Part shown: piece by piece, positions 4,798-60,065 of the stretch
How positions within the stretch are numbered: the first letter of the stretch is position 1
Layout of the letters: each line of letters starts with the position of its first letter
Source of the DNA: Bacteroidota bacterium
GTDB lineage: Bacteria; Bacteroidota; Bacteroidia; Bacteroidales; JAGNHN01
Reading direction: 5' to 3'
Assembly: GCA_022710185.1 (NCBI GenBank)
Contig: JAKLHK010000004.1
Span: forward strand, 3,669 to 67,668
Length of the DNA: 64,000 bases
Notes under the pieces: model-generated
Database searches by the model: none
Told to the model about the DNA's origin: nothing
Seen by the model: only the letters and a program-made list of their open reading frames with translations
Made by a program: the position numbers and the translations under genes

Positions 4798-4843
4798 TCC
4801 TTGTTCCGTAAACCCACATTCCCCCCCGGAATGTCATTAATTA

Positions 4844-12112: not shown

Positions 12113-12150
12113 CAGTGAAAAGTTTGGAGTGTATTGGGAGTCTTATCCTA

Positions 12151-28033: not shown

Positions 28034-28095
28034 GGCACGGGGCGGAGGCTTGCGATAAGGCCCTGAAAGATAAGGAATATAGGAGTGAATTGCAA
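27966..28095. repeat. 130-bp direct repeat, copy 1 (covers the 5' end and upstream region of the LamG/FISUMP gene)
   Basis: Aligns base-for-base with 29724..29853, with 4 mismatches in 130 nt by hand alignment. Confidence 0.95.
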
Positions 28096-28211: not shown

Positions 28212-28559
28212 ATGATCATTACCTTTGCAGACAGAACGCTTATGAAATATGCCAATGATCAAAGTCTGGCGAAGAGGAAGCTTGGAGTCCAACAAGCGGA
28301 GCTTTTTCATAGACGCCTGGAAGACCTCAGAGATTCAGAATCTTTTGCTGACCTGGAACATTTACCGGGAAATCATCATCAACTAAAATTTAACAGAAAG
28401 GATCAATGGTCCTGTGATTTGAATCAGCCATATCGTCTAATCTATATTCCAGCGTATGATCCTGTTCCAAAGGATGAGGATGGAAGACAATTATTAAAGG
28501 AATTAACGGCTGTACGAATTCTTGAAATCAACAACTACCACAAGGAGGGTAAACGATGA
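28212..28559 (+). CDS. higB: HigB-like (plasmid maintenance system killer / RelE superfamily) toxin
   Basis: 115 aa. The pattern ITFADR.L.KYANDQ..A.RKLG...A....RL.DL......DLE.LPGNHHQL...R..QWS..LNQPYRLIY matches the Plasmid_killer/HigB family. There is a 4-nt overlap with the downstream antitoxin-like gene. Confidence 0.8.
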   Translation: MIITFADRTLMKYANDQSLAKRKLGVQQAELFHRRLEDLRDSESFADLEHLPGNHHQLKFNRKDQWSCDLNQPYRLIYIPAYDPVPKDEDGRQLLKELTAVRILEINNYHKEGKR

Positions 28560-29683
28560 CTAACATAAACGAATATTATCCTCAAGAGGTATTGCATCCT
28601 GGTGTCACACTTAATGATAAGTTAGATGAACTTGGTATGACCAGGAAGGAATTTGCAATACGGACGGGTAAGCCAGAAAAGACTGTAATTGCTGTACTCA
28701 AGGGGGAAAGTTCAATTACACCAGAAATGGCTGTCATTTTTGAAAATGTGATAAAGATACCGGCTCATTTCTGGATGAATAAGCAGGCAAGATATAATGA
28801 ATATAAAGCACGTATAAACCGCAATAAGGTCATCAGCGATGCTGAGGATTGGGCAAGGCGGTTTCCGTATCGTGAAATGGCAGGATATGGTTGGGTTCCA
28901 AACGCAAGAAACATTCGCGAGAAAACAATCAACCTGCTGGACTACTTTGGAATTTCAGATGATGAAGCGTGGAAAGATTTGTATATCAATCGTAAGCTTA
29001 AAGTTGCTGCATATGCATCGTTGAAACACACACAAGAGCCTTATGCTATTTCTGCCTGGTTAAGACAGGGTGAGCTTCAGGCCGAATCCATCGAAGTTGG
29101 ATCATACAGCGAAAAGGGATTCAAAGAAGCGCTGAACTCAATCAGATCTTTGATGGTTGCACAGCCTGCGAATTTTTTTTCAGAACTTCAGAAGATATGT
29201 GCAGAAATAGGGGTTAAGGTATTCTACACACCAAAGCTTCCCAAAGTTCCTATTAGCGGATCCACAAGATGGATTAATGACACACCGATCATTCAGTTAA
29301 CGGCCAGGTATAGGCAAAATGATAGATTCTGGTTCACCTTCTTCCATGAAGCAGGGCATATCTTATTGCATAGGAAGAAATATGTCTCTCTTGAAGGGAT
29401 CGACTTCGCAGAGTCAGACAAAGAAAAAGAAGAAGAAGCGCATAGGTTTGCTGAGAATTGGACTTTTTCAGAAGATCAGGAAAAGGAAGTAATTGCATCA
29501 CTTCCCCTGAAAGAAACAGATGTCATATCATTTGCAAAGAAGTTTAACACTCATCCCGCCATGATTATTGGCAGGCTGCAACATAGAGGAGTTATACCGT
29601 ATAATGCTGGACGTGGATTTATGCTACCAATTGATTTGTCAAGCCAGGTTGAGGTGGGTCGGAAAAACTGGACCAGCAACTAA
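28556..29683 (+). CDS. HigA-type XRE HTH antitoxin domain fused to an ImmA/IrrE (M78, COG2856) metallopeptidase domain
   Basis: The N-terminus reads HPGVTLNDKLDELGMTRKEFAIRTGKPEKTVIAVLKGESSITPEMAVIFENV (HigA/VapI HTH). The C-terminal half carries the zinc motif FFHEAGHILLH. Confidence 0.85.
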   Translation: MTNINEYYPQEVLHPGVTLNDKLDELGMTRKEFAIRTGKPEKTVIAVLKGESSITPEMAVIFENVIKIPAHFWMNKQARYNEYKARINRNKVISDAEDWARRFPYREMAGYGWVPNARNIREKTINLLDYFGISDDEAWKDLYINRKLKVAAYASLKHTQEPYAISAWLRQGELQAESIEVGSYSEKGFKEALNSIRSLMVAQPANFFSELQKICAEIGVKVFYTPKLPKVPISGSTRWINDTPIIQLTARYRQNDRFWFTFFHEAGHILLHRKKYVSLEGIDFAESDKEKEEEAHRFAENWTFSEDQEKEVIASLPLKETDVISFAKKFNTHPAMIIGRLQHRGVIPYNAGRGFMLPIDLSSQVEVGRKNWTSN

Positions 29684-29723
29684 GTTGGATCAAATTCATA
29701 AACCGACCCACCTCACCATGCCC

Positions 29724-29853
29724 ATCAAAGGCAGGAAGCCATAGAACATGATACGTGTATTCATATAAAGATTATTGTGGTGGGCAGGCAAGGCACGGGG
29801 CGGAGGCTTGCGATAAGGCCTTGAAAGATATGGAATATGGGAGTGAATTGCAA
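29724..29853. repeat. 130-bp direct repeat, copy 2 (orphan promoter plus 5' fragment of the LamG/FISUMP gene)
   Basis: Matches 27966..28095. On the minus strand it encodes only a truncated MNTRIMFYGFLPLMG... peptide before a stop. Confidence 0.95.
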
Positions 29854-30659: not shown

Positions 30660-33600
30660 TCAGATGTACTCCTTTTGGTTCTTCACGATCTCGAAAATCT
30701 TGTTCTGTAGGTCACGGTCCCCTACGTGGCGTAAGATGGCATATTTCACAGCCCGCTCCTTAAGGATGTTCCCTATCCAGCTGTCTTCCCTGCTGTTGCG
30801 TATGTCCTCATCAAGGGCAAGGACCAGCTCGATATTCTCACCGAGATTGTCGTAAAGTGCTTGCCTGGCAGCAGTACTGATCTGACTGGGATACTGGTTT
30901 TCCCGTTTGCCTGGCTGTATCTGGCGGGCAAGTTCCTCCACCTGGCGCAGGAACTCCTCATAACTTATCGCTTCTGCCTTCCGCTGGTCGATCAGCTCCT
31001 GCAGCAATATGCTCATCTTTTCATAATGAGCCGGGTTCATCGGCATCTCCTGGATGATCACCTTGCGCATATTGGCTTCGAGTGTTTCCGCCACGGCATT
31101 CTTGTTCCCCCGAATCGCAGAAGGAAGCCTGGTAGTTGCCTCACCTACTCCCAGTTCATTAATCAGCTGGAGAAGGGTAACCTCTCCGAAGTCACTGATG
31201 ACGCGGCTCGGATCAGCGGAAAGGTACATATCCAGCATCGTCCGCATCTGGGGTTCATATTGCTTCAGGTCGATATAATCCCCGCTGGCAACTTTTATCG
31301 TATCCCGAAGCTCCGTGAAATGCCTCACCCGGTTTTTCAACTGTGATGCTTCTGCATCCGTATATCCAAGCTCCTTCATCTCTGCAGCCGCATTGTTGTA
31401 TGCCCGGATGAGCGAGACCACTGCCTTGTAAAAGGTGAGTCGCTGTTCTTCGTGCTCCTTTAGTGCTGAAGGATCAGAGGTGTCGCCACAGAAGAAGCTG
31501 ATGTATTGTGGGGTGTTCCGGGGCGGTTCAACGCCTTCGCATAAACGTTCCACCGTCTCCAGGGCATCCTCCAGCTTTTCTTTTGCTTTCTCCAGCCTGT
31601 CAACGAGCAATCCCTGTATGTCCTCCGCCTGGAAGTTATCGAAGGCTTCAGAAGTATAATCTGCAATGGCAGTCCGCAGGGAATTGAACAGGTCCTTGTA
31701 ATCTACGATGTAGCCGAACTCCTTGTCTTCCTTCTCGGTCCGGTTCACGCGGCAGATCGCCTGAAACAGCCCGTGGTCCTGCATCTGCTTGTCGATATAA
31801 AGATAGGTGCAAGCCGGGGCATCGAAGCCGGTCAGCAGCTTATCCACCACGATCAGCAGCTGCATATTCGCTGGCTCATCAATGAACTGCTTCTTTACAT
31901 CCTTCTCAAACTGTTCGCGGGATTTTTCGCCCAGCATTCGCTGGTATGTCTCATATTGCTCTTCCTTCTCCGTCTCTCCCTCCCCTGTGCTTTCTCCCTT
32001 GATGGTAGCCAGTGAGGGCTCATACGAGGTGATGATGGCGCATTTGCGGAAGCCGATTTCCTGGAATATCTCGTAGTAGCGGCAGGCTTCATAGATACTG
32101 GAGGTTACCAGCAGGGCATTGCCGTGCCCATTGCGCAGACGGGGCTTGGTGTTAAAGTCCAGGAGGATATCCCCGGCAATCTTATATAGTCGGTCGCGGG
32201 TGCTAAGAATCTTCTGCATCGTACCCCACTGCTGTTTCAGCTCAGCCTTTGGCAGGTCATTCATTCCCCGGGTCATACTCTCGAACCATATATCCACTCC
32301 CTTCTGGTCGTTGATGCGCTGATCCACATCCCTGGCTTCATACAACAGATCCAGTACTATCCCGTCCTCCACCGCCTCGTTGAACTTATAGGTATGGATG
32401 TAGCTGCCGAACACTTCCAGGCTGGTCTGGTCGGTCTTGAGCAATGGTGTGCCGGTAAACCCTATGAAGAGGGCATCGGGCAGCAAATCCTTCATCGCTT
32501 GGTGAAGTAACCCACTTTGGGTACGGTGGCATTCATCGATGAATACGAAGAGGTTGCCTTTGGGCTGGAAATTTGCAGGACGGCGAAGTTCGTTCGCAAA
32601 GTCCTTTGCCGCTTCCTCATCGCTCTTCCCAAACTTATGCACCAGGGAACACAGCAGCCAGGGAAGGGTACCATTGAGCTTGTCGATCAGGTCCTGTCCG
32701 CTGGTGGTACGGTATATACTCTCGTCCACTCCCTTGAAAACCTTTTCGATCTGCTCATCCAACTCCGTCCGGTCAGTGATAATCAGCAATCGAGCATTCT
32801 CCTGATGCTCCCGTATCCACTTGGCAAGCCATACCATCGTGAGGCTCTTCCCGCTACCTTGCGAATGCCAGATGATCCCTCCCTCCCTTCTGCGGATATA
32901 CTCCTGAGCTGCTTTTACCCCGAAATACTGGTTGGGTCGGCAGGTCTTTTTTATCCCGGCGTCGAATACAGTGAAATCGTGGATCATCTCCAGCAACCTT
33001 TCCTTGCTGAGCAACTGCTGCAGCTGCTGATCCAGTATGCTGCTGTCCTTGTCGTAGGTATGGTTTTCCTCCTTCCAGCGCAGGAAGTGCTTCTCCGGAG
33101 TTTTAATGGTTCCGTAGGATAATCCCTGGCTATCGTTCCCTGCAAGCACGAACTGTATGGTAGCAAAGAAGGGCTTAATGAAACGATGGAGCTGGTTATC
33201 AAGGTTTTGGCGAATACCTTCCGACACCATTACGCTGGCACGCTTCAGTTCGAGTACCACTAACGCAATGCCGTTGACGTACACTACCACGTCCGGACGT
33301 TTGGTATGCTCTCCGGGCACGGTAACCTCTTCGGCTACGGTAAAACGGTTGTTTTGTGGATGCTCCCAATCGATCAGGTTCACCGTGATGATCGCATCGG
33401 TTCGCTCGTCGCGTACTTTCACCCCATAACGCAGTATGCTGTATACTGCCTTATTCACCGGGTACAGATCATCCTGAGGGTTCACGGCTGCTGCGCGTAC
33501 CAGGTCTTGTACCGCCCTCGTTATTATCGCATCCGTGTACTTTTCCTGGCTTCTTAGCCACGCTTTCAGGTCACCTTCCCGGATGTTGCTGTTCTGCAGG

Positions 33601-33686
33601 TCTTTGAGGTTGCCAAGGTAGGAATAACCCAAGGCGTCAACCATCAGTTGGATCACACGATCCTGTGTCAACCTTTCCTTGATCAT
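30660..33686 (-). CDS. hsdR: Type I restriction endonuclease subunit R
   Basis: 1008 aa. N-terminal nuclease region (RPDVVVYVNGIALVVLELK), helicase motif I (HSQGSGKSLTM), motif II (FIDECHRTQ), later SF2 motifs (DKLLTGFDAP, QAICRVNR). Confidence 0.95.
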   Translation of the reverse strand: MIKERLTQDRVIQLMVDALGYSYLGNLKDLQNSNIREGDLKAWLRSQEKYTDAIITRAVQDLVRAAAVNPQDDLYPVNKAVYSILRYGVKVRDERTDAIITVNLIDWEHPQNNRFTVAEEVTVPGEHTKRPDVVVYVNGIALVVLELKRASVMVSEGIRQNLDNQLHRFIKPFFATIQFVLAGNDSQGLSYGTIKTPEKHFLRWKEENHTYDKDSSILDQQLQQLLSKERLLEMIHDFTVFDAGIKKTCRPNQYFGVKAAQEYIRRREGGIIWHSQGSGKSLTMVWLAKWIREHQENARLLIITDRTELDEQIEKVFKGVDESIYRTTSGQDLIDKLNGTLPWLLCSLVHKFGKSDEEAAKDFANELRRPANFQPKGNLFVFIDECHRTQSGLLHQAMKDLLPDALFIGFTGTPLLKTDQTSLEVFGSYIHTYKFNEAVEDGIVLDLLYEARDVDQRINDQKGVDIWFESMTRGMNDLPKAELKQQWGTMQKILSTRDRLYKIAGDILLDFNTKPRLRNGHGNALLVTSSIYEACRYYEIFQEIGFRKCAIITSYEPSLATIKGESTGEGETEKEEQYETYQRMLGEKSREQFEKDVKKQFIDEPANMQLLIVVDKLLTGFDAPACTYLYIDKQMQDHGLFQAICRVNRTEKEDKEFGYIVDYKDLFNSLRTAIADYTSEAFDNFQAEDIQGLLVDRLEKAKEKLEDALETVERLCEGVEPPRNTPQYISFFCGDTSDPSALKEHEEQRLTFYKAVVSLIRAYNNAAAEMKELGYTDAEASQLKNRVRHFTELRDTIKVASGDYIDLKQYEPQMRTMLDMYLSADPSRVISDFGEVTLLQLINELGVGEATTRLPSAIRGNKNAVAETLEANMRKVIIQEMPMNPAHYEKMSILLQELIDQRKAEAISYEEFLRQVEELARQIQPGKRENQYPSQISTAARQALYDNLGENIELVLALDEDIRNSREDSWIGNILKERAVKYAILRHVGDRDLQNKIFEIVKNQKEYI

Positions 33687-35209
33687 AGGTAGCGTTTTCT
33701 CATTTTGGTCTGCCTGATCTTCCCTTTACGGGTTAGGCGGTACTTCTGATTACTGCTTGTCGCCCTGGAGATGGTCATTTCTATCAAACCTTCCTCCAGC
33801 GCCGGGTTCAGATAATTGTCCCGAAAACTGTTCGTATCTCGTAATTCAAGTACATCCATCAACTCTACCCGGCTCATTTCTCCAGAGATACACCACAGTA
33901 CCCTCTCTACAAGTGATTGAATATCTGCGATATCAACCACAGATTCAGGTTCAGCTTGTGGGGTGACTTGTGGGGTGACTTGTGGGGTGACTTGTGGGGT
34001 GAAAGCCTTTCGGTAGATGATGGTCTTGAACACATCTTCCTGACGGAATCCGGGTTCCGGAAGTCCTGCCTGTCTGCAATCACGTATCATATCTCCGGTA
34101 CCGGTACCCATTCGTTCAATATACCCAAGCTGGTACATTGGTTCTGCCAGCAAAGGATTCGCCGGGAACGAAGCATGAGGCTTACGAAGCTGGTCAATGG
34201 ATAAACTTGGGGGAAGATGCCCTGGATTCCAAACCTCCAGACGGTCTTTAAACAGCATCACCTGAACACTCCCGGTACTCGTATAATCACGGTGGGCGAC
34301 AGCATTCACTATCGCTTCCAGTATGACGGTTCTTGGGATCTCATAGGTCACCGGAACATCATTGGATGCTTTGCGCGTTCCGGTAGCTACATCAATGCGT
34401 GAAAGCACAAAGTCAGCTGCCTGATCGATTAGTTCAAACACATCTCCCCTCAGGTCTTTCTGTGCCAGTATGGGTTTGGCGATCTCGGTTCCATGAAAAT
34501 GGGCACATTTCACCAGCGATGTCACAAACCATCTTTGAGGATCATTGCCGAATAAGAGAAGGGCACTATTGGTAAGATTTCCGGACCTCAACAGGTTAAG
34601 ATGAGTTAATACATCCGGAACAGAAGAGCCTGCGGACAATGGGAACCCGCGCTTCGCCTTCGCGGATTCAATGAATGATCGAACTTTCTCATCAGAAATA
34701 TCGGACAGTTTTGCCTCCCGGTTCGCGGCAGCATCGAAGGGGGCAGTCTGTATCGACTGCCGCTTCATAAGATATTCAACCAGTGCACTGTACACCTGGG
34801 TCTTCAAATCTGACAGGCTATCAAACCTATGGCGGACCAATTCCGATTGTGCCTTCTCCACCAGTGCCTGCATTTTCGGATGGCGGTCATCCTTTTCTCC
34901 ACGAAGCAAGACCACACGATACCGATGTTCCTGCGATGCTGCCAGATATTCCTGCTCTGTAGGCGAGGTCCGGTCGGCATTCTCAAATCCATACTCCGAT
35001 CCCCATAACCCAAGATAGATCTCACATCTGCCTGCCGCTTCAAGGTAAACCTGGTCTGCCCGTTGATCCGATGCCGGCAGCATCTCGAACAGCCAGGGCT
35101 CGAAGAACTGTCCAAGCAGCTTATCTCCCAGGATGTATTCCGCGAGAGCCTGCCGTTCTGCCGCAAACTCACGCTGGACACTACTTATGAACACCCTGGA
35201 TTTACTCAT
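33683..35209 (-). CDS. DUF4062-like N-terminal domain + HATPase_c_4 (RecG-like putative DNA-binding ATPase) + C-terminal winged-helix protein
   Basis: The N-terminus (RVFISSVQREFAAERQAL...CEIYLGLWGSEYG) resembles DUF4062, from memory. The central block EAIVNAVAHRDYTSTGSVQVMLFKDRLEVWNPGHLP is the HATPase_c_4 signature. The C-terminal part is wHTH-like. ATGA overlaps couple it to hsdS upstream and hsdR downstream. Confidence 0.75.
   Translation of the reverse strand: MSKSRVFISSVQREFAAERQALAEYILGDKLLGQFFEPWLFEMLPASDQRADQVYLEAAGRCEIYLGLWGSEYGFENADRTSPTEQEYLAASQEHRYRVVLLRGEKDDRHPKMQALVEKAQSELVRHRFDSLSDLKTQVYSALVEYLMKRQSIQTAPFDAAANREAKLSDISDEKVRSFIESAKAKRGFPLSAGSSVPDVLTHLNLLRSGNLTNSALLLFGNDPQRWFVTSLVKCAHFHGTEIAKPILAQKDLRGDVFELIDQAADFVLSRIDVATGTRKASNDVPVTYEIPRTVILEAIVNAVAHRDYTSTGSVQVMLFKDRLEVWNPGHLPPSLSIDQLRKPHASFPANPLLAEPMYQLGYIERMGTGTGDMIRDCRQAGLPEPGFRQEDVFKTIIYRKAFTPQVTPQVTPQVTPQAEPESVVDIADIQSLVERVLWCISGEMSRVELMDVLELRDTNSFRDNYLNPALEEGLIEMTISRATSSNQKYRLTRKGKIRQTKMRKRYL
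33955..34002. repeat. Perfect 12-bp x 4 in-frame tandem repeat, encoding (TPQV)4
   Basis: CTTGTGGGGTGA is repeated four times without mismatch. It falls in the linker of the DUF4062/HATPase_c_4 protein (FTPQVTPQVTPQVTPQAEP). Confidence 0.95.
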
Positions 35210-36399
35210 ACCAGTCGGATTTTGCCAGTTAGCAGGGCTTGCATCATACCTAGCTTTTGGAGTTTGAGCTTCTGGAGCTTTGTTTCCAACAATTCAGTCT
35301 GTTCATCCAATGCAGAAAGTGAGTTAGCGATGTCTTCCTGTTCCTTAATGGAGCTGGGCTTATACAGGATAACATTCTTTACAATTTCCTTATTAAGATT
35401 TAGTACGCTACTTCCCGCAGCCATATTAAGATATTGATTTAGGACAAACGTGGAGGTAAGTGAATAGTACAAGAATTCACGATTGAAATCAGTCTGATAA
35501 TCTTGAAGTACTAACCACCCGTCATGAATACACCCTCCAATCCTTAGAATATAAGGTCTTCCAAAACTCATTGAATTTGAAAGTAAAAGGTCCCCCTCAA
35601 AGACTACTCTTGAGTTTCTAATCCCTTCAGCAACAATTTTTTCATTTGTTGAATCAATAAACCTGCTTTTGGGTCTTGTATCTCCGATTTTAATCCAATT
35701 TATTCCATTTGGGTCATTGGTCAAGTAGTCTTGAATGGGTCTTGGTGAACCACCTCTGCTTACCTTAATAGTATTTCCTACTTTTACTTTAACCCACCCC
35801 TCCTTCGGTCGCAGCAGCTCCTGCATCACGCCTTTCTTGATGGCTTTCTTCTTCTCGATGAGCTGTTCGGTGTGGGCGATGAGGGCATCCATATCCGTGA
35901 GAGCTTCGGCGATGGCGGCTTGCTCGGAGAGAGGGGGAAGGGGGATTTGAGTCTTTGAAACAACCGTCCATTCAGCACGAGGCATTTTTGTTCCTATACT
36001 GATCATTGCTGATGAAATCACACGTTCGCTTTGCACAGTGTAGTATAGGTAATGTGAAGTTATCGTTTTGCCTTTCTTTAAAACCCAAATTTCCGTTGAA
36101 CAAATGCCATTATCCTTCGGCAATAGGAATTTTCGTAAATATGGTCTTAGCTTTCCAAACAAAACGTCTCCTGGTTCAAAGATTGCCTTCTGACTTATGA
36201 CAGATTTTGCTGGTGTAGAGCCAAGAATCCTGCCGGTCCCAACTGAAATATGTTCTAGTTCTATGCAGGGTGTATCATCATTAAGAGAACTTGCAAATAC
36301 GCGCTTCTTTGAGGGAACACAAAGGTTCCCCAAAAATGAAACCTCCCAGTTCTCAGGTATCAACCCTATTTCCGTCTGTTTATATCCTTCATTCTTCAT
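35206..36399 (-). CDS. hsdS: Type I R-M specificity subunit S (two target-recognition domains)
   Basis: The typical features are present: GLIPENWEV, FGKLRPYL, LPPLSEQAAIAEAL..D..I conserved central repeat, and a C-terminal LQKLK..MMQALLTGKIRL. Confidence 0.93.
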   Translation of the reverse strand: MKNEGYKQTEIGLIPENWEVSFLGNLCVPSKKRVFASSLNDDTPCIELEHISVGTGRILGSTPAKSVISQKAIFEPGDVLFGKLRPYLRKFLLPKDNGICSTEIWVLKKGKTITSHYLYYTVQSERVISSAMISIGTKMPRAEWTVVSKTQIPLPPLSEQAAIAEALTDMDALIAHTEQLIEKKKAIKKGVMQELLRPKEGWVKVKVGNTIKVSRGGSPRPIQDYLTNDPNGINWIKIGDTRPKSRFIDSTNEKIVAEGIRNSRVVFEGDLLLSNSMSFGRPYILRIGGCIHDGWLVLQDYQTDFNREFLYYSLTSTFVLNQYLNMAAGSSVLNLNKEIVKNVILYKPSSIKEQEDIANSLSALDEQTELLETKLQKLKLQKLGMMQALLTGKIRLV

Positions 36400-38612
36400 A
36401 TTTCAACCCGATACGATGCACATTTATCAATAATACGCTTCACAGAGGTGCTTACCTGACCGTGGTGCATCCCTTCCCATAGCACCTTACTACAACCCAC
36501 AACCACCAGTTTAGAGATTGCTCTGCTTAATGCCACATTAACCAGGCGTTCGCCATCCTTGCCATAGTACAGGTTGCCAATGCGTATGGGGCTTTTGTTG
36601 GTATCGAACAAACCATCTACCATATCGAAGATGATAATATCGCATTCGCTACCCTGGAAACTATGTATGGTTCCCACCTTTGCTTCAAAGTTCGGTTTGC
36701 ATTCTTGTACAAACTCTTCAACAGCTTTCTGGTAGTTGAGCACCTGCGCACGATAGGGTGCAATAATGCCAACTGAACCACTAATGCCATCTGCATCGTA
36801 CTCCCCCAGGAGACACATTACATACTCGAGGCTACCTTCGTTATAGCGGGAGTGAGTTCCAGTACGGGCTACGGCATAATCTTCATCTTTACCAAGGTCC
36901 ACAAAAGTGACGTTGCCGGCTCTTGGCGAGACTTCATAACAAAGAGACTGACGGTCATTTTTAAGTGTATCAAGTTGTCCCCCGTAGAATTCAGTATTGA
37001 CCAGCTCGATGATAGGCTTGGCACAGCGCCGCTGAAGTTTCAGCATAGAAACGGCTTCATGACTTGCGATATCACCAGTACCCAGAAGATCGAACAGACT
37101 TGAGTGAAGCCAGCGATCAGACAAGGCAGTGTTGGATAAGGCGATTGGTCCGAGCTGCCGGTGGTCCCCTGCGACGACGATACGCTTCGTAACCTTACTG
37201 GATAATGCCAGCAAGATTGGGGGTGACATCATACTTCCTTCGTCAATCACGAGGTTATCAAAGTTGGCTTCTGAGATAGACTCTTCCATAAGCGCTTTGG
37301 AAGAGGTGGTAAAGATGATCCGGGCATTCTCTATTCTTTCTCGCAGATGATTTGCCAACTGGTGTTTTGCCTGTTCCAGTTCCGATAGCTTTCTTGCATA
37401 GGTTGTCCTATTTTTATCCGCATCAATGGCAGGAATCTCTTCTTCGAGTACCTGTATCCTGCTGCGAAATTCAAGAGTCACATCATCTTCCGGGAACAAT
37501 TCTTCGACTTCCAGTAAATCCTTATCCCCCACATATCCTATCCGCAGTATCTCTCCACGCTTTAGTATTTCTGCATCCTGTTTCTTAATGGCGGCTACAA
37601 GCTTCATTGCAAGTCCATTTACGGCTACGTTGGCTATGGAACAGACCAGGGTTCGCTCACCTTTCATGAACAATGCAAGGAGCAAGGATGCCAACGTATA
37701 GGATTTTCCCGTACCAGGCGGTCCCCATATATATGTAACGGGTTGTGTTATCGATTTCCTTACGGCTTCTTGTTGACTGACATCCAAATTGCCAGCAAGG
37801 GGTGGGATATTCTCATCAGGGAAATAAATGATGTCAGGTGCCGAACGGAACAGATTCCTGAACCGATGACTGCTCAGGTCAATCCTTTCGATACTTTTGA
37901 TCAGGTTACTGATCAGGTACCAGGGGTTATTCTCCAGTCTGGGGCGACCACCTGATGGGAGCTTGCGGCTGGTCTGGAAAATAACCTTGCTTGTTCGACT
38001 ATCAAACTGAAGAATAGTTACATAAGTGATAAAACCATGGTTTTTATACCGAACCTTTAATCCCTCCGGTAGCTGGATCACCTGGTCGTCCGAGTCCGTA
38101 AAACACCTCGCTGAATAGACCTGGATACCCTTTACTGTCGTTAAATAGGTCAAGCCATACAGGTCCACATAATTCTTTCGGGTGGATTCATTGAATGAAC
38201 GTATTTCATCCTTCAGTGCCTGTATGATTTCTTGCTGAATCCCGATATCATCTATTTGTGGCGGGCGAACTGAGAAGATACCTGGGTGATGTTCTCGTAT
38301 TAGGGAAATTGCTGGTCGGAATTTCCTTAGTCGTCCAGTACTGTCGAACTCGAAGAATTCCCTGTACTGTCCAAGCATCCGTGTAATCAGATGTACCCCA
38401 TCCTGACCGTTACCAAAGATCAATGATGCTGCCTGTCCATTGGTAAAATAGAAATAAACCGGCTTTTGATGACGAGGGGCTTGCAGGTAAATAAGTTCAG
38501 ATCCTTTCCTCACCAACTGCCTGATATAATAGTAGAATATCTCTTTAGGATCGTTTTTATCCCTCAGCGAGCGCCGAATCAGCTCATCGTCTATGTGAAT
38601 TAATTCCTGCAT
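36396..38612 (-). CDS. Upf1/DNA2-like SF1 helicase (AAA_11/AAA_12-type) with an uncharacterised ~270-aa N-terminal region
   Basis: Walker A IWGPPGTGKSYT, Walker B VIDEGSMM, GDHRQLGPI, LKLQRRC, IIAPYRAQV, TIHSFQGSECDIIIF, NVALSRA. It lies between hsdM (1-nt gap) and hsdS (ATGA overlap). Confidence 0.88.
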   Translation of the reverse strand: MQELIHIDDELIRRSLRDKNDPKEIFYYYIRQLVRKGSELIYLQAPRHQKPVYFYFTNGQAASLIFGNGQDGVHLITRMLGQYREFFEFDSTGRLRKFRPAISLIREHHPGIFSVRPPQIDDIGIQQEIIQALKDEIRSFNESTRKNYVDLYGLTYLTTVKGIQVYSARCFTDSDDQVIQLPEGLKVRYKNHGFITYVTILQFDSRTSKVIFQTSRKLPSGGRPRLENNPWYLISNLIKSIERIDLSSHRFRNLFRSAPDIIYFPDENIPPLAGNLDVSQQEAVRKSITQPVTYIWGPPGTGKSYTLASLLLALFMKGERTLVCSIANVAVNGLAMKLVAAIKKQDAEILKRGEILRIGYVGDKDLLEVEELFPEDDVTLEFRSRIQVLEEEIPAIDADKNRTTYARKLSELEQAKHQLANHLRERIENARIIFTTSSKALMEESISEANFDNLVIDEGSMMSPPILLALSSKVTKRIVVAGDHRQLGPIALSNTALSDRWLHSSLFDLLGTGDIASHEAVSMLKLQRRCAKPIIELVNTEFYGGQLDTLKNDRQSLCYEVSPRAGNVTFVDLGKDEDYAVARTGTHSRYNEGSLEYVMCLLGEYDADGISGSVGIIAPYRAQVLNYQKAVEEFVQECKPNFEAKVGTIHSFQGSECDIIIFDMVDGLFDTNKSPIRIGNLYYGKDGERLVNVALSRAISKLVVVGCSKVLWEGMHHGQVSTSVKRIIDKCASYRVEI

Positions 38613-38613
38613 G

Positions 38614-41031
38614 TCACAGCATTGTAAAACCCATCTTACGGAGATGCCCCTTTACCTTCTCATCCAGTTCGTTGATCTCCTCTTCGATAAAGGGTAAGGG
38701 AGTCTCATAGCGTTCCATCAGCTCCTTAATCCTTCCAGTCAGTCGTTGACTCACGCGCTCCAGCTCCCTTTCGATGGCAGCCTCCATTGCTTTCATCCAC
38801 TTTGAACCGACCACGATCTCCTTCACCAGGGAGGGTGTAAGGCGCTGATATTGTGCCAATGCCAGTCTATCGATCTCCTTCCCGAGATCGCTGATCCTGG
38901 ACTTAAGTTGGGACTGTTTCTCCGAGAGATCCAAGTAGGTCTTCATAACCCTGACCTCATCCTTTGCTTCCTTGTCGTCCCTGATCTCCTTCAGGCGCCG
39001 GGTGATTGTGCCCTTGTTCACCTTATCGAAATCTGAGAAGTAGCCTTCATCACCATTCTGCTCTTCCACGAGCTCATCCAGCTCAGCAGCAATGGCATCT
39101 GCTTCCGCTTCCAGCTCTTGCAATCTGTTTTGTTGATCAGCAAAGAACTCAGAGATCATCAATGCCGGAGGGATGAGGTCGCTGTTCCAGCCCTTATCCT
39201 TCTGCTTGCCCGACTTGTTGGTATCTGTAACACGGTATGGTTGTGATTCCCAGCCTGCTTCAGCGATCAGATATAGATCATCCTGCATCACCTCTGCCCA
39301 ATAATCCATAAGGTGTTGATAGATATCGTAGTTATTCAGCAGTTTTTCCAAAGCATAGGCTTCCAGCAGGCGCTCACCAATGTGCGCGATAACCTGCCGG
39401 GGATTGCAGCCAATGTCCAGCGACTGCAGATAGTCTTTTGCTTCCTGAGACCAGCTGCCAAAGACCTCCTTCACCTGCTTGCTGTAACTGCGAAATTCAG
39501 GATATTCAAAGATGGCAGCCTTGATTTCCCCCTTATCGATGAGCATTTTGAAGTATCCTGGACGATCTCCTGCCGTGAACAGCTTCGACCTCAATCCTGG
39601 AAAAACGGTCCAATATTCTTGTAGTCCGTCCACATCGCGTTCCGGGATACCCCCGTACAGATGGGCAGCAATATCCTGAATATCTTCTACCTCCTGGCTT
39701 TCGATATATCGCGGGATATTCAGGTTGAAGTCATTCTTTGGATCTGCAATCTCTTCCACAGCTACAAGGCGACTATAACCCGGGATCTCGGTCTGCTTGT
39801 TGAAGACATCCACAATACGGTGGATATCCTGCTCCCGGAGACGGTTTTTGTTTCCGTCCTTGATAAATCCCTTGCTGGCATCGATCATAAAGATCCCCTT
39901 TCGTTCGGGTGCACCTGCCTTATCGATCACGATGATGCAGGCAGGGATACCGGTACCATAGAACAGGTTAGCCGGCAGCCCGATGATCCCTTTGATCAGT
40001 CCCCGGCGGATGATGTTCCTGCGGATCTCCGCTTCGGCATTTCCACGGAACAATACCCCGTGGGGAAGAATGATCGCCCCCTTGCCTGAGCTTTTCAGGG
40101 ATGCGATGATATGTAGCAGGAAGGCATAGTCCCCGTTCTTCTGCGGGGGCATTCCATAGCCCGTAAACCGGTTATGTTCATCGTTCTGGGGATCGAAGCC
40201 CTGCATCCAGTTCTTGCTGGAGAATGGAGGATTGGCTACAGCGAAGTCGAAAGTCTTGAGGTATCCATGATCGTCAAAGAACAGAGGGTTGGAGAGTGTG
40301 CTTTGTCCTTTCACGATCTCGGCTGCATCGTTGCCGTGAAGTATCATATTCATCTTAGCAAGTGATCCTGTAGCATTATCTTTTTCTTGTCCGTATAGGG
40401 AAGACTTCCCATCATGCTCATCGCCGACCTTAAGCAGCAGTGATCCGGAACCACAGGTCGGGTCATAGAATGTTCGGTTCTCCCTCACCCCTTTTGGAAT
40501 CTCCAGCACCATTGCCATTATCCGGCTCACCTCTGCAGGTGTGTAGAACTGTCCCTTTGCCTTTCCAGATTCTGTTGCGAAGTGACGCATAAGATATTCA
40601 TAGGCATCCCCCAGCAGGTCATCGCCACCAGCTTTATTCTTGCTGAAATCAAGGGCAGGGTTCTCGAAGATGGCGATCAACTTACTGAGCGTGTCAACCA
40701 TCTCCTTACCTTTTCCCAGCATTTCCTCATCGTTGAACACCGCAACGTCAATCACGTTCTGGAGTCCATTTGCTCTGGCGATGGCACCGATAGCAGTATC
40801 CATCCGCTCACCGATATCCTTGTGGTGCTTCAGCTTGGCAATCTCTGTGAAGCTGCATCCTGGAGGAACCTCAATCAGAGAATAGGGGTCACTTACTGCC
40901 TTATCGGAAACATACTTCCAGAAGAGCATAACCAGCACATAGTCCTTATACTGTGAGGCGTCCATACCCCCACGCAGCGCGTCGCAGCTTGCCCAGAGCG
41001 AGCTGTATAGTTCAGATTTCTTGAGAGCCAT
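38614..41031 (-). CDS. hsdM: Type I R-M N6-adenine DNA methyltransferase subunit M with a long coiled-coil C-terminal extension
   Basis: Start moved to the conserved MALKKSELYSSLWASCDALRGGMDASQYKDY (HsdM N-terminal domain). SAM motif YDPTCGSGSLL and catalytic NPPFS. About 300 extra C-terminal residues rich in E/K/L heptads. Confidence 0.92.
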   Translation of the reverse strand: MALKKSELYSSLWASCDALRGGMDASQYKDYVLVMLFWKYVSDKAVSDPYSLIEVPPGCSFTEIAKLKHHKDIGERMDTAIGAIARANGLQNVIDVAVFNDEEMLGKGKEMVDTLSKLIAIFENPALDFSKNKAGGDDLLGDAYEYLMRHFATESGKAKGQFYTPAEVSRIMAMVLEIPKGVRENRTFYDPTCGSGSLLLKVGDEHDGKSSLYGQEKDNATGSLAKMNMILHGNDAAEIVKGQSTLSNPLFFDDHGYLKTFDFAVANPPFSSKNWMQGFDPQNDEHNRFTGYGMPPQKNGDYAFLLHIIASLKSSGKGAIILPHGVLFRGNAEAEIRRNIIRRGLIKGIIGLPANLFYGTGIPACIIVIDKAGAPERKGIFMIDASKGFIKDGNKNRLREQDIHRIVDVFNKQTEIPGYSRLVAVEEIADPKNDFNLNIPRYIESQEVEDIQDIAAHLYGGIPERDVDGLQEYWTVFPGLRSKLFTAGDRPGYFKMLIDKGEIKAAIFEYPEFRSYSKQVKEVFGSWSQEAKDYLQSLDIGCNPRQVIAHIGERLLEAYALEKLLNNYDIYQHLMDYWAEVMQDDLYLIAEAGWESQPYRVTDTNKSGKQKDKGWNSDLIPPALMISEFFADQQNRLQELEAEADAIAAELDELVEEQNGDEGYFSDFDKVNKGTITRRLKEIRDDKEAKDEVRVMKTYLDLSEKQSQLKSRISDLGKEIDRLALAQYQRLTPSLVKEIVVGSKWMKAMEAAIERELERVSQRLTGRIKELMERYETPLPFIEEEINELDEKVKGHLRKMGFTML

Positions 41032-41282
41032 AGGCGAAGATCCTTGAAATGGTAGGGGTAAATCTAAGGAATAGTTGCCGTAATCAACGCTATTGGACCG
41101 CAAAAACATATATAGTTGACCTCTATTGCAATTGTTCGATTGATGGAAAGGCATTACCTTTCAGCTCTATAAGCATATCAACAGCCCATAGGTATTGGAG
41201 CCCGCATCAGAGATGCAAAGACGGTGGAGATTGCTATGGGGTTATTGGAGCTGGAGCATTTACTATCCAATCATAAGAATCT

Positions 41283-41894: not shown

Positions 41895-42337
41895 AAGTTG
41901 CATAACCCCTCCATCTCAGCTAAATTATTATCTCTGCTGCTCCCCCGCTCCGCAAATATGGACTTGGAGGGTCTTTCGGGTGAGTTAGCATTGTGATTCA
42001 GGGTAGGTACGGTGCAACTACATCCGTATCGCCTGCAATAATAGAGCCTAGTAACGGCAAGCGGTTGTCGATCCTAATCTATTGTGCAAGCAGATATTCG
42101 CCCATATCAATCGAAGTTCATAATGGTGGTGGCGAACTCCTTCCGTGCATCATCATCGAAGCCGGCAAAATGCTGCCCCAGTTTATAGAAATTCTTGGAC
42201 AGAGCACCCCTTTTCCCTACCTTTATCACAACACCCTGTCAGCAGGCAGCTGTTTCCGTGATGATTACCGTGGGCGGTAGTGTAATCCATCCAGAATGAG
42301 TGTGAGAGCGAGAGTGAGAATGCTACACTTTATTTGC

Positions 42338-42592
42338 CCTGGGGATCAGGGTTTGAGGAAGAGGAACAGGAAGAGGAAAAAGGGAGCCCACACTGTTCCT
42401 CCACACTCCAAACTGTTTTTGGGTTTGAGGAAGAGGGAGAGGAAGAGGGTTGAATAGTTTGGAGTTTGAGGAAGAGGGAGAGGAAGAGGGACGCCACACT
42501 CTTCCTCCACACTCCAAACTGTTATTGAGGAAGAGGGACGCCACACTCTTCCTCCACACTCCAAACTGTTTTAACCTTCACACTCCACACTG
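42338..42592. repeat. Hairpin-containing tandem array A (about 47-bp units, 2 good and several degenerate copies)
   Basis: The unit is GAGGAAGAGGGACGCCACACTCTTCCTCCACACTCCAAACTGTTATT. The array begins with CCTGGGGATCAG plus an inverted partial unit (AATAGTTTGGAGT), as array B does. Its last degenerate copy overlaps the final 5 codons of the four-helix-bundle gene. Confidence 0.9.
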
Positions 42593-42925
42593 TTTTATCA
42601 GACTATACAGCATACGCGAAATCTCTTCCCCCATTGCGTAGAATTCCCTGAAGAGATTCCCGTCAATGAGATGCTGGTCCTTCATCAGGCCAAATATTGC
42701 TATGCATTCATACACTGAGCCGCGTGCAATAATATAGAAATACCTCTTGTCGCGCTTTGAGAAGCGTCCAGCCCCCTCTGCAATATTTAAGACAACACTT
42801 AATGAGGCCCGTAACAGCTGATTCCGTTCGGGGTTTTGGATATCATTAATCTGGACAAGGCTTTTTGTTTTCATATGGAATGATTTGGCCTGTCCGTATA
42901 CCTCCAGCTTTTCGAAGTCGAACAT
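42578..42925 (-). CDS. Four-helix-bundle protein (23S rRNA intervening-sequence protein / Avd-like family)
   Basis: 115 aa, starting MFDFEKLEVYGQAKSF. The ...VLNIAEGAGRFSKRDKRYFYIIARGSVYEC... block is the hallmark of this family. The track ORF 42578..43696 is an artefactual read-through. Confidence 0.88.
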   Translation of the reverse strand: MFDFEKLEVYGQAKSFHMKTKSLVQINDIQNPERNQLLRASLSVVLNIAEGAGRFSKRDKRYFYIIARGSVYECIAIFGLMKDQHLIDGNLFREFYAMGEEISRMLYSLIKQCGV

Positions 42926-43009
42926 ACGGTCTGAGTGCTTGGTTACTACGCTAAATAGACGCAACAGGACCCTGGAACGGAAAAAATGAAGTGAAGAATT
43001 GTTGACTGT

Positions 43010-43427
43010 CCTGGGGATCAGTATTGTAGTTTGAGGAAGAGGGAGAGGGTTGAATAGTTTGGAGTTTGAGGAAGAGGGAGAGGGAGAGGAAGAGGGAGAG
43101 GGAAAATCACACTCTTCCTTCACACTCCACTCTGTTATTGAGGGAGAGGGAAAATCACACTCTTCCTTCACACTCCAAACTGCTATTGAGGAAGAGGGAA
43201 AATCACACTCTTCCTCCACACTCCAAACTGTTATTGAGGAAGAGGGAAAATCACACTCTTCCTCCACACTCCAAACTGTTATTGAGGAAGAGGGAAAATC
43301 ACACTCTTCCTCCACACTCCAAACTGTTATTGAGGGAGAGGGAAAATCACACTCTTCCTCCACACTCCAAACTGTTATTGAGGAAGAGGGAAAATCACAC
43401 TCTTCCTTCACACTCCAAACTGTTTTT
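43010..43427. repeat. Hairpin-containing tandem array B (leader plus 7 x 48-bp units at 43092-43427)
   Basis: Units start at 43092, 43140, 43188, 43236, 43284, 43332 and 43380, each exactly 48 bp. Each reads GAGG(A/G)AGAG-GGAAAATCACA-CTCTTCCT(C/T)-CACACTCCAAACTGTTATT, a 9-bp inverted repeat with an 11-nt loop. The array ends 1 nt from the tRNA-Thr 3' end. Confidence 0.95.
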
Positions 43428-43428
43428 G

Positions 43429-43501
43429 AGCCTCTCACCGGACTCGAACCGGCGACCTGCTCATTACGAGTGAGCTGCTCTACCAACTGAGCTAAAGAGG
43501 C
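43429..43501 (-). tRNA. tRNA-Thr (anticodon CGT)
   Basis: The reverse complement folds as a cloverleaf. The acceptor is GCCTCTT/GAGAGGC and the D arm is TAGCTCAGTTGGTAGAGC. The anticodon stem-loop is CTCAC-TCGTAAT-GAGCA and the T arm is GCCGGTTCGAGTCCGGT. No CCA is encoded. Confidence 0.9.
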
Positions 43502-43568
43502 TGGTCTATTACGAGGCGACAAAAGTAATAAAAAGCGGGCAACGGGCAAGGGCCGGGGCAAAAACCCC

Positions 43569-44198
43569 TCAGCGACCCTCGGGCCCCACGCTCTGGGTGA
43601 TGATGACTTCCTGCCCCTCACCCAGGCCCAGCAGCCGGTGCAGGGGCTCCGCGTCGAAATACCCGCGCACCACCGTTGCCAGCCCTGCCGAAGCACAATA
43701 GAGATAGACGTTCTGCACCATCAGCCCGGCGTTGAGGGCGCTGGTGGCCTTGTACTCCGCCGCCGTGGCCCCGATGCGGGCATAGTCGGCCACGTAAACC
43801 AGGTTCACGGCCGCCTTGCCCACGAAATCCTGCTTGCCGGTCTCCGCCCGGTGGTCGCCCTCCAGCACGCGGAGCAGCCCGTGAGTGGTCACATCATAGC
43901 GGTACACGCCCCCCCTCAGGAAGACGTAGAGGTCCATCTCCTGCTTGTTGCGCGAATTGGCCGTGGTACGCTTGCCGCTTTCAGGGCGGTTGATGCCGTT
44001 GGCGGCCCACAACAAGTCAGAGAGCTGCTGCACATTCAGGGGTTCATCAACATACTCCCGCGACGAGCGCCGCTCGTTCAGGCAGTCCATCAGGCCCTTG
44101 CCGCCATGCTTCTGAGGCTCGGGCAAGGGAAGGCCCTCCTGGCCGTAGGCCAGGGAACCCAGCATGATCAAAGGCATCATAAGGAGGATCGGTTTCAT
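43569..44198 (-). CDS. Nitroreductase-family (SagB/ThcOx-like) protein with signal peptide
   Basis: RRSSREY motif near the N-terminus; conserved LLWAANGINR and the nitroreductase-fold C-terminal blocks. Confidence 0.8.
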   Translation of the reverse strand: MKPILLMMPLIMLGSLAYGQEGLPLPEPQKHGGKGLMDCLNERRSSREYVDEPLNVQQLSDLLWAANGINRPESGKRTTANSRNKQEMDLYVFLRGGVYRYDVTTHGLLRVLEGDHRAETGKQDFVGKAAVNLVYVADYARIGATAAEYKATSALNAGLMVQNVYLYCASAGLATVVRGYFDAEPLHRLLGLGEGQEVIITQSVGPEGR

Positions 44199-51348: not shown

Positions 51349-51733
51349 GGATGGTTCGGATGCAGGGTAAAGGTAGGGAAATCAATGCTCAGTGCTCAGT
51401 GCTCAATGTTAATGGACAACGGATTGACGATTGAAGAGGAAGATTGACGATTGACGAGGAAAAGTGAAGGATCAACCGTCGCTCTTCACACTGTTGCTTC
51501 ACACTGCAAACTCACAAAAATTGCATCAGATATCCTGTGGGTTACCCGAGCCGGGCTTGGTGCGCTTTTTTTCCTTAGGGACTTCTCCTGATGCAAAGGT
51601 GTGACGTAAAATTTGTTAACTTGAAACCGGCTTCTGATCTTGATTTACACAGTCAATTAGTTGATAGACATATCACAGTATATAAACGGACTATGTAATA
51701 GACCTCAGGCCTGGTTTTCAAAACACCACCATT

Positions 51734-59694: not shown

Positions 59695-59937
59695 CCCCGG
59701 AATGCAAGCATTATGGAGGAGGATTACGCTGCGCGTGATCCGTTGGGGGGGGGCTTCAGTCAATGCCCTGCCGGGCTTCGCCCGGCTACGGGCTTTCCCT
59801 TTCCCTGCCCCGGAATGCAAGCATTATGGAGGAGGATTACGCTGCGCGTGATCCGTTGGGGGGGGCTTCAGTCAATGCCCTGCCGGGCTTCGCCCGGCTA
59901 CGGGCTTTCCCTTTCCCTGCCCCGGAATGCAAGCATT
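59695..59937. repeat. 112/113-bp tandem repeat (2 full copies plus a partial third) containing G8/G9 tracts
   Basis: GGAATGCAAGCATT recurs at 59699, 59812 and 59924. The copies differ by one G in a homopolymer (G9 at 59745-59753, G8 at 59858-59865). Each unit holds the GCCGGGC-TTC-GCCCGGC hairpin. Confidence 0.93.
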
Positions 59938-59987: not shown

Positions 59988-60065
59988 TGGTCGGGATGAG
60001 AGGATTCGAACCTCCGGCCTCTTCGTCCCGAACGAAGCGCGCTAACCGGGCTGCGCTACATCCCG
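59988..60065 (-). tRNA. tRNA-Pro (anticodon CGG), CCA encoded
   Basis: The reverse complement has acceptor CGGGATG/CATCCCG and D arm TAGCGCAGCCCGGTTAGCGCG. The anticodon stem-loop is CTTCG-TTCGGGA-CGAAG and the T arm is GGAGGTTCGAATCCTCT. The discriminator is A, followed by CCA. Confidence 0.9.

Follow-up and report, generated by a model that had tools for sequence, protein, structure and literature searches.

In the 64,000-nucleotide stretch of the Bacteroidota contig JAKLHK010000004.1 analyzed here (the window), a gene for a four-helix-bundle (4HB) protein lies behind a tRNA-Thr gene, between two copies of a hairpin-forming module, one of which includes an array of seven tandem units that adjoins the tRNA. 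Comparison with related loci shows this arrangement to be a 4HB cassette with a palindromic boundary module inserted at the 3′ boundary of the tRNA-Thr gene. It likewise shows the cassette to be a member of what appears to be a large, previously unremarked class of 4HB cassettes in the trailers of tRNA and transfer-messenger RNA (tmRNA) genes. Taken as a whole, the locus is probably an integrase-less element in a tRNA trailer that resembles the intervening sequences (IVS) of rRNA genes, with arrays produced by slippage of the module.

The nitroreductase/tRNA-Thr synteny is shared by relatives, and the content after the tRNA differs in every one of them. In two related loci, L093 and L094 (related loci are designated by L numbers), an 81% identical nitroreductase orthologue is followed by an identical tRNA-Thr and then by a plain 45-bp terminator. 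When L093 is aligned to the window with blastn, the alignment covers 44273-43425, breaks off, and resumes at 42278-42176 (88% over 104 nt); between the two alignments L093 has its 45-bp plain terminator where the window has 1,146 bp (42279-43424). This break and resumption mark 42279-43424 as an indel at the tRNA 3′ boundary. The tRNA and the parts of the block, in sense-strand order, are as follows:

43428..43501, minus strand: tRNA-Thr(CGU) (ARAGORN; Rfam RF00005, 64.5 bits)
43092..43427, minus strand: array B, seven 48-bp units (Tandem Repeats Finder (TRF), pattern search, sense-strand segmentation)
43010..43091, minus strand: module B closure (sequence, word search, repeat families D3/D5, segmentation)
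42926..43009, minus strand: 5′ region of the 4HB gene, 84 nt (conserved in L003, L004, and L007: ..TTTTTCCGTYYCAGGG..CGTCTATTTAG..)
42578..42925, minus strand: 4HB protein gene, 115 aa (Pfam, NCBIfam, AlphaFold2 (AF2), dN/dS)
42338..42597, minus strand: module A, overlapping the end of the open reading frame (ORF) (TRF, repeat families, segmentation, fold z -4.5)
42279..42337, minus strand: distal end of the inserted block, with a CTC-type tail (TTCTCACTCTCGCTCTCACACTCATTCT, sense strand) (blastn boundary against L093)
42279..43424, minus strand: whole 1,146-bp block, present in the window and absent in L093 and L094

In the sense direction, which the tRNA and the gene share, the order is tRNA-Thr, AAAAA, seven units, module B closure, 84-nt 5′ region, ORF, and module A, with modules A and B forming a direct repeat, one on each side of the ORF. 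The tRNA does not encode its CCA and, by direct sequence reading, is 100% identical to the tRNA-Thr of L003, L004, and L093; that of L005 has a few bases different. Array B adjoins the tRNA 3′ end, beginning 5 nt (AAAAA) past it, and is reported by TRF at 43092-43430 with a period of 48, 7.1 copies, and 96% matches. Its unit, CAGTTTGGAGTGTG-RAGGAAGAG-TGTGATTTTCC-CTCTYCCTC-AATAA, corresponds to the module's long 5′ arm plus a short 9-bp hairpin. The unit pattern at ≤3 mismatches occurs six times, against none in 100 shuffles, and the 16-mer CACACTCCAAACTGTT from the non-hairpin half of the unit occurs 14 times, against 0.38 expected. For comparison with palindromes of the REP/BIME or MITE type, which are dispersed in many copies per genome, the unit copies in the 64 kb of the window are confined to this locus. 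A match at 12118 is a single 14-of-16 word, near chance. In the module B closure, a polypyrimidine run leads into the full 3′ arm CTCTTCCTCAAACTCCAAACTATT, after which come a second 3′-arm-like copy (CTCTTCCTCAAACTACAA) and CTGATCCCCAGG. Module A is made up of a gene-end pseudo-unit, two 47-bp units with the loop TGTGGCGTCC (TRF: 42480-42570, period 47, 1.9 copies, 100% matches), a module-B-like closure, one degenerate unit, and again CTGATCCCCAGG. The upstream module copy starts at the tRNA end and the downstream copy overlaps the stop codon; each flank holds both arms of the module, and long-range pairing is possible between the direct-repeat flanks. The boundary module is a terminator-like palindrome whose 5′ arm is rich in G, A, and T; the loop and the 3′ arm come next, and then a second, C/A/T-rich tail that resembles the 3′ arm. 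The conserved 84-nt region before the ORF is a candidate for the gene's own promoter or 5′ untranslated region; no sigma-70 consensus was found in it by a scan that does not cover Bacteroidota promoters.

This layout confirms the outline given by a first-pass annotation of the window, which had placed a 4HB gene between two hairpin arrays of the same orientation, one abutting tRNA-Thr (TRF, ARAGORN, Rfam, and Pfam). The inverted partial units that it described were located at 42453-42468 and 43053-43068, and its 9-bp stem (GAGGAAGAG/CTCTTCCTC) is indeed kept in both arrays, with two loop versions between them. Its seven "exact" units are in fact 96% alike, three being identical and the others differing at 1-3 or more positions. 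What it called an array of 47-bp units holds two or so regular units, the rest of 42338-42597 being composite. The common leader of the two arrays, which reads CCTGGGGATCAG on the plus strand and CTGATCCCCAGG on the sense strand, is present exactly at 42338 and 43010 as described, and a third exact copy at 61797 means that the 12-mer alone is not diagnostic. The proposed link between unit and gene end is real in that the ORF ends AAA CAG TGT GGA GTG TGA, which is the beginning of a unit, so that the last codons and the stop lie inside a unit-like 5′ arm. The suggested serial duplication of the gene's 3′ end must be reversed in polarity, because the module alone stands directly after tRNAs and the ORF merely ends in its 5′ arm. 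In L004 a perfect 23-bp hairpin with TTTT after it holds the end of the ORF in its 5′ arm, which indicates that in the unit a long terminator-like palindrome has been cut down to its 5′ arm plus a short inner hairpin. On this evidence it is the ORF that stops inside the palindrome, and the palindrome is not copied from the gene end.

The relatives that carry cassette or module sequences extend the comparison. L003 has a cassette at 79-80% amino acid identity with a near-identical module behind an identical tRNA-Thr; this cassette has 45% G+C in a host of 20-39% G+C, and that of the window ~47% in a host of 56-62%. Behind its tRNA-Thr, L004 has one long hairpin module, followed by YefM/YoeB and by a 4HB gene in inverted orientation that has modules of its own, while L005, from a metagenome-assembled genome (MAG) of the Lentimicrobiaceae, has a long hairpin followed by an array of 69-bp variant units. 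The single-copy modules of relatives have the form A-run, stem, T-run. The unit recurs elsewhere, and its copy number varies: it is 7 in the window, 0 or 1 in some relatives, and at least three, as 69-bp units, in L005. It was found in one of 185,579 GTDB species representatives, a Lentimicrobiaceae MAG, and was absent from IMG/VR. The G+C contrasts of L003 and the window, together with the varied tRNA-Thr loci, suggest that the cassette has moved horizontally and that the locus turns over rapidly, and we infer that the cassette is mobile. Two readings raised at first pass, the footprint of a small mobile cassette and an att-like hotspot, both fit the filled/empty pair, the occurrence of the cassette across hosts of different G+C, and the module direct repeats in relatives.

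The association with stable-RNA genes recurs among relatives of the 4HB gene across Bacteroidota. A metagenome scan provided a family set of 80 loci with homologues 42-56% identical, 69 of them with enough upstream sequence to be informative. In 49 of these 69, a tRNA or tmRNA gene on the same strand ends 67-400 nt before the ATG, with about 20 anticodons represented; the background elsewhere in the family loci is 7 tRNAs per 157 kb. The spacer typically starts 0-3 nt past the tRNA end and follows one design: after an A-run comes a hairpin whose 5′ arm is rich in G, A, and T, a T-run follows, and a C/A/T-rich tail stands right before the ATG. Many relatives have spacers of 67-130 nt that comprise the hairpin and tail only, which often leaves no space for a promoter. 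The module belongs to the cassette, given that most other tRNAs of the family loci are followed by plain terminators; moreover, partners are switched, one module family being found behind different tRNAs and tmRNA inside a single protein clade. A strong direct module repeat flanks the ORF on both sides in 17 of 48 loci, and in most of these it starts a few nucleotides from the tRNA end and at most about 30 nt from the stop. Tandem amplification also recurs, in L005 (69 bp), L056 (80 bp x3.8), L057 (45 bp x3.9), and L031, where five copies of an 83-bp unit adjoin the tRNA-Arg 3′ end; in L012 (2412-3447), and in L068 too, the whole of module plus 4HB ORF is in tandem (x2.2, period 464 bp, 95%). 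In one locus, L061, 40 nt of the tRNA-Leu 3′ end reappear without a mismatch 14 nt past the stop. The downstream neighbours of the family cassettes are mostly housekeeping genes. Some 4HB ORFs lie within tRNA operons, with the next tRNA as little as 3 nt (L082) or 9 nt (L080) past the stop. No paper on a tRNA-trailer 4HB arrangement was found in a literature search of limited reach, which returned only work on IVS and on diversity-generating retroelements (DGRs).

Two side observations were made in these loci. The operon layout is seen in L080 (2501-2932), L082 (2501-2927), L073, and L089, with the next tRNA 3-54 nt after the stop, and would imply an mRNA punctuated by tRNAs on both sides. Separately, a palindrome, CCCGATAG(C/T)TATCGGG, recurs near tRNA genes and 4HB modules (L003 at about 2640-2665, the L010 spacer, and upstream in L028), the L010 copy lying within a tRNA-Leu 3′ fragment; occurring as it does on unrelated contigs, it looks like a separate miniature inserted element.

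The gene itself belongs to a known protein family. Its product matches PF05635 (E 3.9e-20, 72.5 bits against a cut-off of 33.8) and TIGR02436 (72.8 bits, cut-off 24). The AF2 monomer model has a mean predicted local distance difference test score (pLDDT) of 93.8, with helices at residues 4-26, 32-51, 57-83, and 89-112, and the predicted structure superimposes on BT_0352 (2RLD) with a template modelling (TM) score of 0.87 and on XCC0516 (2GSC) with 0.83-0.86; in Foldseek, Avd (8UB7, 4DWL) gives more distant matches. Structures of S23p/IVS proteins were solved in 2006-2007, and the link of the family to 23S rRNA intervening sequences dates from the 1990s. The ratio of nonsynonymous to synonymous substitution (dN/dS) is 0.06-0.17, that is, the ORF is under purifying selection, and the protein is basic (isoelectric point 8.9; family median 8.96). 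Among collections of mobile elements, it has no phage record and one weak plasmid match.

The hairpin also bears the marks of selection. Covariation was tested in ten AAAACAGTTTKGAG-type modules, which form a related module family. Their inner hairpin is 96% paired with compensatory changes in 7 of 11 pairs, and its covariation (0.377 against 0.170 in shuffles) is reached by none of 500 shuffles and is abolished when the pairing partner is slid. A second helix, which would join this 5′ arm to the tail preceding the ATG, is likewise conserved, with 91% pairing and ten double-change cells, a level reached by 2 of 500 shuffles; the two helices are mutually exclusive. As to the strand, the fold energies are equal (-148.4 and -149.9 kcal/mol), and 41 related spacers have no strand bias in folding (19 versus 22, p 0.51). 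NAG triplets at 5-7-nt spacing, a TRAP-like periodicity, are enriched over shuffles (3.2 against 1.6) to the same degree on either strand, with antisense chains as long or longer, and so do not discriminate between the strands. With no strand preference in either fold energy or triplet periodicity, RNA and DNA roles of the module are inseparable by computation.

A sequence of events can be proposed that would account for these features. The arrays would be tandem amplifications of part of the module, its 5′ arm plus the short hairpin, produced most likely by slipped-strand mispairing or unequal crossing-over, either of which would be favoured by the hexamer-periodic purine/pyrimidine tracts. 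Read-through transcription initiated at the tRNA promoter would express the 4HB gene, and tRNA 3′ processing would release its message, with the hairpins acting as partial terminators, processing sites, or stabilisers; in the subclade of the window, the conserved 5′ region might provide an additional promoter. The cassette could spread or duplicate when recombinases, from the host or supplied in trans, act on the module or on the tRNA 3′ end.

The closest analogy appears to be with the S23p ORFs in 23S rRNA IVS, which the cassette parallels, and the tRNA trailer would then be a second route for the family into a stable-RNA transcription unit. The 23S rRNA IVS with an S23p ORF has been described as a selfish element of 428-444 nt with a 28-bp terminal stem, excised by RNase III, and IVS with S23p/4HB ORFs occur in Leptospira, Coxiella burnetii, Xanthomonas, and Brucella; the Coxiella IVS has variable tandem heptamers upstream of an ORF reported to be decaying and probably untranslated (PMC4990558). 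Cassette and IVS have in common a PF05635 protein, a small size (about 0.4-1.1 kb) within a stable-RNA transcription unit, complementary sequences at the termini that can form long stems, a variable number of short tandem repeats beside the ORF, a sporadic and horizontally acquired distribution, and the lack of a recombinase of their own. They differ in that the cassette lies in a tRNA 3′ trailer (tmRNA in relatives), whereas the IVS lies in helix 25 or 45 of 23S rRNA; in that the cassette is flanked by direct repeats of a palindromic module, whereas the IVS has one inverted-repeat pair enclosing the ORF; and in that the cassette ORF is under strong purifying selection, unlike the reportedly decaying ORF of Coxiella. 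Rfam finds two tRNAs only in the window, so the cassette is not in a helix of a 23S rRNA gene, and over the locus, at gathering threshold and E ≤1, it returns tRNAs and chance miRNA-like matches only.

Several other systems were compared with the cassette. Avd, which binds a DGR RNA containing the 3′ end of the avd gene, shares with the 4HB protein its fold and a gene 3′ end within an adjacent structured nucleic-acid element, although the 4HB sequence and structure are nearer to the non-DGR S23p proteins 2RLD and 2GSC. A DGR was rejected for the locus itself, as neither a reverse transcriptase nor a template/variable repeat pair was found in it or in about 37 of the larger window ORFs, the only repeats being the arrays. 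The first-pass exclusion of CRISPR holds, the units being head-to-tail without spacers. Integrase-less remnants of the cis-mobilizable (CIME) type and the NBU elements of Bacteroides are known at tRNA genes, and Williams, in 2002, reportedly described tRNA and tmRNA 3′ ends as integration sites. The cassette resembles CIME-like elements in its placement at a tRNA or tmRNA 3′ end, its direct repeats at both ends, the absence of an internal integrase, and, in the one relative L061, a perfect tRNA 3′ duplication; it differs in being much smaller (0.45-1.15 kb), in always containing the same single gene, and in that the repeat is mostly the cassette's own hairpin module and not a tRNA segment. A classical tRNA-targeted integrative element was rejected: there is no tRNA-Thr 3′ repeat and no integrase, and such a repeat was found in relative L061 only. 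Integron cassettes (ORF plus attC) are alike in having a small promoter-less ORF, an imperfect palindrome overlapping the stop, structure kept more than sequence, and the possibility of tandem cassettes, and unlike in that the anchor here is a tRNA end, not attI, and the gene family is single. An integron was also rejected, since no IntI is encoded among the about 37 ORFs scanned and the module ends AAAACAG..CTGTTTT do not fit RYYYAAC/GTTRRRY.

Several points weigh against an integrase-less, IVS-like cassette in a tRNA trailer. The difference from L093 could in principle be a deletion in L093, and the inverted orientation of the 4HB gene relative to tRNA-Thr in L004 means that co-orientation is not universal. 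The window contains no second copy of the tRNA-Thr 3′ 18-22 nt at ≤3 mismatches, the block has no target-site duplication around it, and no recombinase (integrase or transposase) was found in the about 37 window ORFs scanned; elsewhere in the family an integrase is one of 20 downstream neighbours. Co-transcription with the tRNA and processing of the transcript are steps that we infer. No terminator-like site was found on either strand in 42200-43650, and the window units lack a T-run after them, so that a terminator role fits the relatives and not the units of the window. Finally, mis-assembly may have altered the copy number of the array. The count of seven units comes from a metagenome assembly and is not secure, since further contigs of this organism break off within the array or at the tRNA that precedes it.

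This last point leads to the explanation that the array is an assembly artefact, or a neutral microsatellite-like expansion unlinked to the gene. The identity of the three central units extends over about 150 bp, a length that short reads resolve poorly, and several contigs of the organism stop within the array or at the adjacent tRNA; yet independent assemblies from two samples give module A, the module B closure, and at least 5.4 units, related arrays stand at homologous positions in other organisms, and the unit 5′ arm is shared with the ORF end in several lineages, which makes this explanation very improbable. The idea of a plus-strand structured RNA array, antisense to the tRNA and the gene, came from the first-pass argument that the stem positions with transitions, A/G on the 5′ side and C/T on the 3′ side, would still pair as G-U in a plus-strand RNA where the minus strand would have A-C. 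That argument fails, as there are two such positions only, representing few independent events, the "A" variant of the sense strand is universal in relatives (GTGTGAAGGAAGAG), whose long hairpins pair it with T, and neither the fold energies nor the 41 spacers distinguish the strands; we give this possibility almost no credence. A further possibility is a functional structured RNA with the same orientation as the tRNA and the gene. Hairpins and periodic GAG-type triplets would then form a multi-site platform for a putative ring-shaped 4HB pentamer, whose binding might serve autoregulation, ribonucleoprotein formation, or regulated read-through, by analogy with Avd and DGR RNA. The compensatory changes in the hairpin, the conservation of the second, mutually exclusive helix, the enrichment of NAG triplets over shuffles, and a basic protein structurally nearest to S23p-family pentamers and to Avd of the DGR ribonucleoprotein are all in keeping with such a platform. 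However, fold energy and triplet periodicity are without strand bias, a site acting at the DNA level would equally give palindromes and covariation, and close relatives keep the gene with the array absent or single-copy, so amplification is not required. We regard a platform of this kind as rather unlikely to be the explanation of the arrays.

The repeats might instead be the recombination cores of an att-type hotspot, left by successive integrase-mediated integrations and excisions of islands at tRNA-Thr, with the 4HB gene a passenger in a CIME-like accretion. Such a hotspot would suit the variable low-G+C defence island downstream of tRNA-Thr, which is a type I restriction-modification (R-M) system in the window, PIN/DUF433 plus T5orf172 in L093, and YefM/YoeB in L004; the L004 modules that flank separate gene cassettes; and the classical 40-nt tRNA 3′ duplication of L061. 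It is hard to reconcile with the lack of an integrase in the window ORFs scanned and of a repeated tRNA-Thr 3′ fragment, with cassettes that mostly stand alone between the tRNA and housekeeping genes, and with a module that follows the 4HB clade, not the identity of the tRNA, and we consider it improbable. The IVS-like trailer cassette with slippage-derived arrays remains our preferred reading. It could also be extended: Bacteroidota 4HB genes would be unrecognised non-autonomous cassettes that home to stable-RNA 3′ ends, the targets being tRNA, tmRNA, and, in other phyla, 23S rRNA helices. Their pentamer would bind the periodic hairpin module of its cassette as RNA or single-stranded DNA in an Avd-like manner, with a role in propagation or in regulated read-through from the stable-RNA promoter, and the seven-unit array would be a multivalent binding platform and no mere leftover. 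This extension is speculative and we think it doubtful.

The family makes tRNA and tmRNA trailers a second, much more frequent niche of S23p/IVS-family genes, one with direct repeats of a covarying module, and it offers filled and empty sites, tandem amplifications, and transfers across G+C contents that are open to testing. Questions brought within reach are whether the 4HB protein binds the flanking hairpin, whether the release of mRNAs from tRNA precursors is routine in Bacteroidota, and which recombination system targets the ends of stable-RNA genes. On a practical level, the modules break short-read assemblies beside tRNA genes.

The DNA around the cassette has features of its own. Just beyond it, 42176-42278 is 88% identical to L093 4302-4404, a stretch that in L093 precedes the 3′ end of a PIN_10 gene (4433-4843, minus strand). 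A 95-aa ORF at 41993-42280 (plus strand), without a Pfam match, overlaps the L093-like stretch and may be a gene remnant; the L093-like DNA suggests an older island that has been overwritten. A second tRNA trailer with a tandem duplication is found at 59695-59937, beside tRNA-Pro(CGG) (59988-60065, minus strand), where tandem copies of a 112-bp unit (x2.2, 99%) with many nested palindromes come after a terminator hairpin; a 4HB gene is absent there. This trailer adjoins a block of 38-45% G+C (51.7-59.5 kb) encoding Ig-like proteins and an S8 peptidase that carries type IX secretion system (T9SS) sorting and dockerin domains. The "related word" reported at first pass for 51485-51515 is weak: one half of the intergenic region 51420-51515 is rich in G and A and the other in C and A (CTCTTCACACTGTTGCTTCACACTGCAAACTC), much as in the modules, but 51370-51530, which includes it, folds no better than shuffles (z +1.1, not significant); the region may be what is left of a solo module. 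Elsewhere, a direct repeat of 139 nt (96%; 27957-28095 and 29715-29853), which duplicates the 5′ end and upstream region of a Fib_succ_major gene, surrounds a 1.6-kb insert of 40% G+C with an HTH_3 plus Peptidase_M78 (ImmA/IrrE-like) gene at 28556-29683. Downstream of the cassette, a composite defence island is formed by a type I R-M operon (hsdR, hsdS, hsdM; 30660-41154) and two extra genes embedded in it, one for a DUF4062 / HATPase_c_4 / Fic-like_C protein (33683-35209) and one for an AAA_11/AAA_12 helicase (36396-38612). Within the DUF4062/Fic-like gene, a perfect 12-bp x4 tandem repeat (CTTGTGGGGTGA) at 33955-34002 is in frame and could encode a length-variable protein segment.

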